Positions 53,617-53,853 of a DNA stretch of 64,000 nucleotides are shown in pieces. The stretch is taken from IMG/VR virus record IMGVR_UViG_3300044673_000097, positions 1 to 64,000 of that record; one strand, written 5' to 3'. A program made the translations under genes and the position numbers. The notes beneath the pieces are model-generated. The model was not told the DNA's origin. It worked only from the letters and a program-made list of their open reading frames with translations, and made no database searches. The first letter of the stretch is position 1. Each line of letters opens with the position of its first letter. The DNA is from a virus.

Positions 53617-53853
53617 CCTCCAATGCTCACGCTTCGATCCTCGATCGCGAGGTCAAGGCCTGTCGTTTCCATTTCATTCTCCTGCCCTGCAATCGATGAC
53701 GCTTCGATCCGCGATCGCGAGTCGAAGGGCGCGAACGTGCACGCCACGGCATATCCCCTGCAATCGATGGCGCAACGATCCTCGATCGTCACCGTCGTGG
53801 AGACGGTTTGCGGCGCCGCGTTTCCAGTGCCTGCACCCGTTCACGCTCCAACC
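53617..53853 (-). CRISPR. mini-CRISPR array 1 (3 full repeats + 1 truncated repeat, 3 spacers)
   Basis: 35-36 bp repeats at 53617-53651, 53686-53721 and 53757-53792 (minus CTCGCGATCGCGGATCGAAGCGTCATCGATTGCAGG); partial repeat 53830-53853; spacers 34, 35 and 37 bp. Confidence 0.88.

Follow-up and report, generated by a model that had tools for sequence, protein, structure and literature searches.

The question raised by the first 64 kb (hereafter, the window) of the 85,379-bp IMG/VR virus record IMGVR_UViG_3300044673_000097 is why a phage genome should carry, immediately upstream of the gene for a miniature Cas12f/TnpB-like effector, three imperfect repeats that alternate with two short intervening segments. 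A first-pass annotation of this DNA described the arrangement as a mini-array lacking an AT-rich leader and adaptation genes, and took it for an old, fixed guide set of the adjacent effector, maintained by selection rather than by active spacer acquisition. The observations that bear on this question are the repeats themselves, their homology to arrays of related loci, the complementarity between the repeats and an anti-repeat, the covariation of an RNA scaffold, the loss of catalytic residues in the effector and the purifying selection acting on its gene. Judging from these features of the sequence, we propose, with a probability of roughly 0.75, that the region encodes a trans-activating CRISPR RNA (tracrRNA) and a degenerate mini-array, Ra-S1-Rb-S2-Rc, that would serve a nuclease-dead Cas12f, most likely a protein that binds DNA without cutting it.

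A repeat finder identified a single family of three copies in this region (53615-53647, 53685-53717 and 53756-53788), with start-to-start distances of 70 and 71 nt and 73-88% identity to the reference copy. Because all neighboring genes are on the minus strand, we read the region in that orientation and extended the repeat units to 37 nt, which yields Ra (53756-53792), Rb (53685-53721) and Rc (53615-53651), separated by the spacers S1 (53722-53755; 34 nt, 65% GC) and S2 (53652-53684; 33 nt, 48% GC); the first-pass description of three imperfect repeats and two spacers thus holds, coordinates included. The repeats share 30 of 37 positions between Ra and Rb, 28/37 between Rb and Rc and 23/37 between Ra and Rc, that is, they differ at 7-14 positions. 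In type V systems, the repeat stands 5' of its own spacer, so that S1 belongs to Ra and S2 to Rb, with Rc as the terminal repeat. The fullest copy is Rb, in which both the part that pairs with the anti-repeat and the 3' tail are present. The tail of Ra is intact (identical to that of Rb in 14 of 15 positions) and its pairing part is diverged (6 differences in 22 positions), whereas Rc retains the pairing part (21 of 22 positions as in Rb) and ends in GGAGGTG (53615-53621), a changed tail that serves as ribosome-binding site for the effector gene, 4 nt ahead of its TTG start codon. Farther upstream, at 53830-53849 on the minus strand, lies a half repeat, R0, which comes after the anti-repeat described below, consists of the 3' tail only and aligns with the last 20 nt of all three full repeats as well as with the repeat tails of two related loci, L007 and L009 (see below). 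It is followed by a 37-nt stretch, S0 (53793-53829), which is spacer-like by position only; R0 and S0 may constitute a third, single-guide-like unit. An open reading frame (ORF) of 26 codons (53592-53672, minus strand) starts within S2 at 53672, crosses Rc and the TTG codon of the effector and stops 16 nt past it; this upstream ORF may couple to, or control, effector translation.

The repeats stand out statistically. An 18-nt repeat pattern searched with up to 3 mismatches has 5 matches in the window against 1.06 expected, a count that 0 of 100 shuffled sequences reached, and all five fall within 53630-53877. When the whole record was scanned for triple repeats spaced by 66-75 nt, the array site ranked at the top, with identity in 58 of 74 positions; the next two sites (52 and 51) are spaced by multiples of 3 and fall at ~14.2-15.5 kb, under long ORFs (13936-16289). 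The first-pass annotation was also right about what the locus lacks: the sequence upstream of Ra (53793-54000) is 60.6% GC, so that there is no AT-rich leader, and profiles of Cas1, Cas2 and Cas4 produced 0 matches each in the 85-kb record (~88% complete by estimate), with control genomes matched by the same profiles.

A putative helper RNA is located ~70 nt upstream of the array. On the minus strand it comprises, in this order, hairpin A (53909-53926; a stem of 5-6 bp), the tetranucleotide AAAG, hairpin B (53887-53904; GCGAGG...CCTCGC), which is the best-conserved helper element of the family, and a 31-nt anti-repeat (53856-53886). The anti-repeat is a near reverse complement of the repeats and was picked up as a reverse-strand match of the 18-nt repeat pattern. 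It can form 28 base pairs with Rb, 3 of them G-U, and similar duplexes with Rc and Ra. The energies calculated with RNAduplex are -43.4, -44.6 and -31.5 kcal/mol for Rb, Rc and Ra, respectively, compared with about -19 +/- 3.6 kcal/mol for shuffled repeats; shuffles as low as the true duplex were encountered in 0/500 cases for Rb, 0/500 for Rc and 1/500 for Ra. The anti-repeat also favors the repeats of its own locus: in cross-locus comparisons, the window anti-repeat reaches -42.3, -39.0 and -30.2 kcal/mol with its own repeats and -16.3 to -25.3 kcal/mol with those of four other loci.

Further support comes from covariation in the two hairpins, which are found beside the effector gene in L003, L005, L007 (8 copies), L008 and L009 and occur twice in the window. 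In an alignment of 14 copies of hairpins A and B from the window and its relatives, 92.1% of the cells are paired, as opposed to 80.2% after shuffling, and 7 of the 12 scaffold pairs show changes on both sides, a number matched by 0 of 500 shuffles; sliding the partner strand by 1-3 columns reduces the pairing to 26-52%. In helix 1, the stem of hairpin A, 5 of 6 pairs have changed on both sides, and helix 2 (hairpin B) is 92% paired. The G-U pairs of the scaffold and of the anti-repeat duplex are consistent with the gene-sense strand only. Ra and Rb terminate, on the 3' side, in UUGCAG, and the loop of hairpin A includes its complement, CUGCAA; a pseudoknot between this loop and the repeat tail was considered, but it is backed by one compensatory difference between the window and L007 and fails in L008 and L009, so we retain it as an idea only. 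The scaffold also overlaps a cysteine-rich ORF (53841-54149, minus strand; 102 aa from an ATG preceded by a GGTGGGAG ribosome site) that crosses the hairpins and stops at 53841; either the helper RNA overlaps a real gene at its 3' end, or the tail of this ORF is non-coding.

The effector gene (52105-53610, minus strand) starts with TTG directly downstream of Rc and encodes a protein of 501 aa. This protein matches pfam07282, the Cas12f1-like TNB domain (E = 5.6e-12), and the PADLOC profiles of Cas12f (3.7e-34) and Cas12u3 (8.1e-34), along with the NCBIfam guided_TnpB model at 3.1e-21, which is under the cut-off of that model. A profile built from 19 family members retrieves AsCas12f-type chains (PDB 8j12, 7wju and 8dzj) at E ~1e-31 and, far less strongly (9e-11), the solved nuclease-deactivated Cas12f chain 9n9c. 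We used the alignment of the family profile with the AsCas12f-type chains to fix the catalytic columns of the RuvC domain. The RuvC-I aspartate is found in 0 of the 19 aligned members and is replaced by histidine in the 5 closest ones (this effector included), asparagine in 13 and valine in 1. The RuvC-II glutamate is present in 12 of the 19, with proline in the same 5 closest members. The window effector is nevertheless full length and retains the RuvC-III aspartate and the four zinc-ribbon cysteines. Given the replacements in RuvC-I and RuvC-II, no cleavage is expected from this protein, which, with two of its three catalytic residues gone, has apparently lost DNA cutting. The gene is under purifying selection: against the L007 copy (65% identity, 313 of 484 aligned residues) the ratio of nonsynonymous to synonymous substitution rates (dN/dS) is 0.15, with dS of 1.9, which is near saturation. 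The family is of limited size, with 20 clusters at E <= 1e-3 in a word-indexed search, and 36 representatives at E <= 1e-30 among 680 at E <= 1e-3 in an exhaustive one. Among the 401 cellular genomes searched from the G001 phylum, only genome G001 itself has a match, and one locus was found in genome_contigs.

The stop codon of the effector gene overlaps the ATG of a partner gene (51524-52108, minus strand; 194 aa), so that a TnpB-style guide RNA could not be accommodated at the effector's 3' end. The partner is kept in L007 and absent from L003, L005, L008 and L009, so that, among the loci compared, it is restricted to the clade that also lost the RuvC-II glutamate. Pfam and PHROG searches assigned it to no family, tblastn against phages had no match, and the sole lead to its identity is a DUF3102-like similarity. 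The protein ends in a coiled coil.

To place the window in the context of its family, we compared it with the related loci L007 (identical to L006), L008, L002 (identical to L010), L009, L005, L003 and L004. L006 and L007 show no difference in 3607 nt (100% identity), and neither this pair nor the L002/L010 pair counts as two independent loci. Over the matched segment, effector identity to the window protein is 64% for L006/L007, 43% for L008, 40% for L002/L010 and 37% for L009, and identities of 37%, 36% and 23% were obtained for L005 (from a metagenome-assembled genome (MAG) of Deltaproteobacteria), L003 and the distant L004, respectively. All six distinct loci besides L007 contain direct-repeat arrays in the orientation of the gene, with a period of ~70-74 nt in five of the six (12 repeats in L009, 6 in L005, 2 in L003, at least 6 in L008 and 8 in L004); the 9 repeats of L002 are irregularly spaced. 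The array of L009 (5442-6243) consists of 9 near-identical 36-mers followed by 3 degenerate last repeats, with unique spacers of ~35 nt, and the window repeats align with it, sharing a common GATC, the GAAGCGTCA core and a TGCAG-type end. A 12-nt anti-repeat exactly complements the 3' part of the repeat in L009, L005 and L003, and its first and last positions vary among these loci, each time with a matching change in the repeat. This comparison, which combines array homology, covariation and the preference of the anti-repeat for its own repeats, shows that the window repeats are of the CRISPR RNA (crRNA) type and are served by a tracrRNA-like RNA, in agreement with the first-pass assignment of the array to the adjacent effector. 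Each window repeat contains two GATC sites, and GATC occurs at the same place in Ra, Rb, Rc and the aligned L009 repeats; it is also present, unaligned, in those of L005 and L003.

The L009 array is located downstream of a family member with asparagine at RuvC-I, and three short partial repeats precede the gene. Some lineages with dead effectors, such as L009, thus look as if they still gain spacers. The closest relative compared at the DNA level, L007, has the same gene order as the window, with 8 two-hairpin scaffolds and 16 short tails of 13 nt (3737-3990 and 6040-6870), each followed by ~20-40 nt, and some of its spacer segments are duplicated. In place of a classical CRISPR array, the guide region of L007 strings together near-complete single guide RNAs. 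The repeated scaffolds and duplicated spacers of this locus suggest that, in the clade, guide sets are altered through duplication and decay. A search of viral_contigs for relatives with the repeat of the window, using a pattern of two repeat tails separated by 45-70 nt, had 0 matches.

Based on these data, we infer how the window module might be transcribed, processed and loaded, how it would bind DNA and what kind of targets it may have. The helper RNA, the array and the effector mRNA would be carried by one transcript or two; the anti-repeat would pair with each repeat to form a tracrRNA:crRNA hybrid that is loaded into the adjacent Cas12f-like protein; and the resulting complex would bind, without cleavage, DNA complementary to S1, S2 and perhaps S0, thereby blocking the transcription, or the replication, of either a host gene or a rival mobile element. 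The array, which lacks spacer-uptake machinery, looks hard-wired, and its last repeat has been remodeled into the ribosome-binding site of the effector. A more elaborate version of this scheme, which we offer tentatively and consider less likely than not as a whole, is a self-contained, hard-wired form of CRISPR interference composed of a dead Cas12f, a minimal two-hairpin tracrRNA and a few fixed guides. In this version, the clade would evolve through duplicated and decaying guide units instead of Cas1-Cas2 acquisition; loading of the helper RNA or of the protein at Rc, which doubles as the ribosome-binding site, would throttle translation of the effector; and the guides would silence genes of the host or of rival phages during infection or lysogeny.

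Several results weigh against the proposal of a guide-bearing, DNA-binding module. Comparison of S0, S1 and S2 with the entire 85-kb record (allowing 2 mismatches in 16, 4 in 20 or 6 in 24 positions) recovered only the array itself; the longest exact matches elsewhere in the record, 10-11 nt, are within the range of shuffled spacers. Exact 20-mers of S1 (two) and of S0 had 0 matches in viral_contigs, blastn searches with the window and L009 arrays against phages and plasmids returned either nothing or hits with E of 0.2-0.9, and only chance-level matches of the window array were obtained in the MAG that holds L005. An S2 20-mer has one match in viral_contigs (L011), which extends to 22 nt. The first 18 nt of S2, however, are a generic Shine-Dalgarno plus ATG context, with 20 instances in 19 unrelated viral contigs, all of this form; at this frequency, ~0.08 matches of 22 nt are expected, so that the L011 match is compatible with chance. 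We rejected L011 as a protospacer of S2 given that the contig has 41-50% GC, is unrelated to the phage and matches on a ribosome site and start codon. At the family level, there is one hint: spacer 1 of L005 (2437-2472) matches positions 1501-1530 of L013, another contig of the same 10.4-Mb MAG, in 29 of 30 positions (32/36 overall; E = 2.2e-6), inside an ORF of 931 aa with a PHROG minor-tail-protein match (E = 1.3e-12), which points to phage DNA as the spacer source. Even here, the 4 mismatches are at the repeat-proximal end, where the Cas12 seed is expected. The region was found in 4 rhizosphere DNA sequencing runs and in 0 RNA runs. A simple consensus scan of the minus strand from 51000 to 54600 did not detect a promoter of the sigma-70 type. 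The duplex of Ra with the anti-repeat is clearly weaker than those of Rb and Rc, and Rb is the only complete repeat; a scan of the minus strand of the 85 kb uncovered a single other site, in coding sequence (58596-58642, minus strand), that pairs with the anti-repeat at -46 kcal/mol. This pairing is probably due to chance in a GC-rich genome, yet it equals that of the repeats, so duplex energy alone is not decisive. Finally, the loss of DNA cutting is itself read from residues of an alignment.

These results also divide the first-pass view of an old, fixed guide set maintained by selection. Its first half stands insofar as nothing indicates recent acquisition: the repeats are degenerate, differing at 7-14 of 37 positions where L009 has 9 near-identical copies, Cas1, Cas2 and Cas4 are missing, and Rc is fused to the ribosome-binding site. 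Maintenance of the guides by selection gained no support, with zero targets found for any spacer. As for constancy of the spacers, the reads yielded fragmentary contigs: three pieces from run X3 (52930-53105, 53257-53594 and 53737-53911, the last a 175-nt contig from an independent sample) are identical to the window, and runs X1, X2 and X4 contain only short partial pieces that continue into unrelated sequence, so that the reads as a whole are too thin to speak for constancy or against it.

The missing targets, the divergence of the repeats, the loss of much of the anti-repeat pairing in Ra and of the conserved tail in Rc, and the presence of a second guide module all fit an alternative in which the array is a decaying, non-functional CRISPR remnant and the effector uses either the downstream module (51.1-51.5 kb) or the half-repeat unit fused to the helper. 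We regard this as unlikely because Rb keeps both functional parts and is still matched by the anti-repeat, the effector is under purifying selection, and in Rc the pairing part is preserved in 21 of 22 positions, the tail having become, specifically, a strong ribosome-binding site. Degenerate terminal repeats are, moreover, common in working arrays.

That same ribosome-binding site, into which the longest predicted duplex reaches, invites a different interpretation, namely a cis-regulatory leader of the effector mRNA in which hairpins or pairing of the tracrRNA with Rc hide the site and the upstream ORF in S2 controls translation; in a variant, the palindromic CGATCG-rich repeats would be operator sites of a DNA-binding protein. 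The beginning of S2 is indeed a textbook translation start, located at the start of an ORF in L011 (the one contig checked), the small ORF overlaps the TTG codon, and the repeats do contain palindromes. However, this interpretation leaves unexplained the homology to the regular arrays of the relatives, the covariation of anti-repeat and repeat and the CRISPR-like 70/71-nt period, and a cis-regulatory role could coexist with the guide function without replacing it; as a full account of the locus we consider it improbable. Still less credible, to the point of being negligible, is the notion that the repeats are fortuitous or belong to a small protein gene. An ORF of 66 aa (53592-53792) does span the region, with Ra and Rc in the same frame, 141 nt apart, but the spacings of 70 and 71 nt are not multiples of 3, so that Rb is in another frame, spurious ORFs abound at 65% GC, and the array site is the top repeat of the genome.

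The tracrRNA and mini-array serving a nuclease-dead Cas12f, as we propose for the window, can be compared with several known systems. Type V-F1 Cas12f (AsCas12f type; PDB 7wju, 8dzj and 8j12) shares with the window module a miniature effector in which a zinc-ribbon TNB domain is present, a tracrRNA that includes an anti-repeat, repeats of ~36 nt and a spacer 3' of each repeat, the RNA features of the window being computed only. Unlike V-F1, the window effector has histidine in place of the RuvC-I aspartate and proline in place of the RuvC-II glutamate; its array is phage-borne, with 2-3 spacers, degenerate repeats and no Cas1, Cas2 or Cas4 in the record; the helper consists of only two hairpins and the anti-repeat; Rc is fused to a ribosome-binding site; and there is a coupled partner gene of 194 aa. 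The cas1, cas2 and cas4 genes are present in many, although not all, V-F loci.

TldR proteins have no CRISPR array and use a single guide of the omega-RNA type, for which the 3' end of the gene codes; by contrast, the window draws its guides from repeat-spacer units and a separate helper RNA, both upstream and downstream of the gene. The resemblance to TldR (PMC13622181), some members of which are encoded by prophages, is in the combination of a RuvC-dead TnpB-family protein on a phage, a fixed guide and expected repression by RNA-guided binding. The TldR feature of a guide that matches a promoter in its own genome has no counterpart beyond chance in the 85 kb of this phage. Cas12m (PMC11656645), a type V effector carried by plasmids and by some prophages, does not cleave but silences through binding, and is similar in this respect; no Cas12m model was among the PADLOC or NCBIfam matches of the effector, the coverage of Cas12m in these libraries being unchecked. 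The same paper describes viral mini-arrays of 1-2 spacers without adaptation genes, which borrow the host effector and copy the host repeats, whereas the window array comes with its own effector and helper RNA.

Hoffmann et al. (Nature 2026; PMC13472631) also describe relatives of Cas12f that are dead and bind DNA by means of guide RNAs. Their dCas12f-sigmaE proteins, from Bacteroidota, are reported to have lost part of RuvC through C-terminal truncation and to rely on single guide RNAs, a tracrRNA not having been detected; the window effector, in contrast, is full length with point replacements, has an anti-repeat, is carried by a phage and has no sigma gene nearby (a sigma-factor domain is absent from the 8 neighboring ORFs at 50.3-56.5 kb). 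The report briefly mentions a separate dead-Cas12f cluster beside CRISPR arrays, with guides directed toward promoters, and loci mixing full-length guide RNAs and array repeats, which resemble L007. Cas12m, TldR and dCas12f have thus all been reported to block DNA by binding without cleavage (PMC11656645, PMC13622181, PMC13472631). Altae-Tran et al. (PMC10691335) outlined a path from an array, via a half repeat fused with a tracrRNA, to omega-RNA arrays, and both L007 and the half repeat R0 of the window resemble steps on this path. Our literature search found no phage-borne, full-length dead Cas12f with a tracrRNA and a mini-array, although the supplements of PMC10691335 and PMC13472631 may list the family. 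On this analysis, the window module appears to function like V-F1 but fails in the catalytic triad, and it would be a binder like TldR and Cas12m that is built like neither.

The remainder of the record is that of a tailed phage, with genes for the portal, large terminase, major head protein, tail sheath and a DnaB-like helicase; the best matches of the terminase are ~48% identical and scattered among many hosts. The DNA is ~65% GC, and a search of the record found no tRNA. An Rfam search matched no family, save for one chance-level match (E = 0.69). Two clusters of an 11-nt tandem repeat, at 62427-62466 (3.6 copies, 96%) and 62611-62655 (4.1 copies, 88% matches), are located ~1.2 kb past the helicase gene and may be iterons of a replication origin.

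If the proposal is correct, phages would not only borrow parts of host CRISPR systems or carry systems that cut but would also keep complete miniature, bind-only systems with two or three guides. The RNA-guided transcription factors currently exemplified by TldR and dCas12f-sigmaE would then extend to a tracrRNA-dependent, array-based and phage-borne form, and in practical terms a very small effector (501 aa) would come together with a helper RNA of ~70 nt. The proposal would also imply that a single protein family contains a natural series from regular arrays (L009) via degenerate mini-arrays (the window) to repeated single-guide units (L007), which would bear on how guide RNAs were split and re-fused in the evolution of Cas12.

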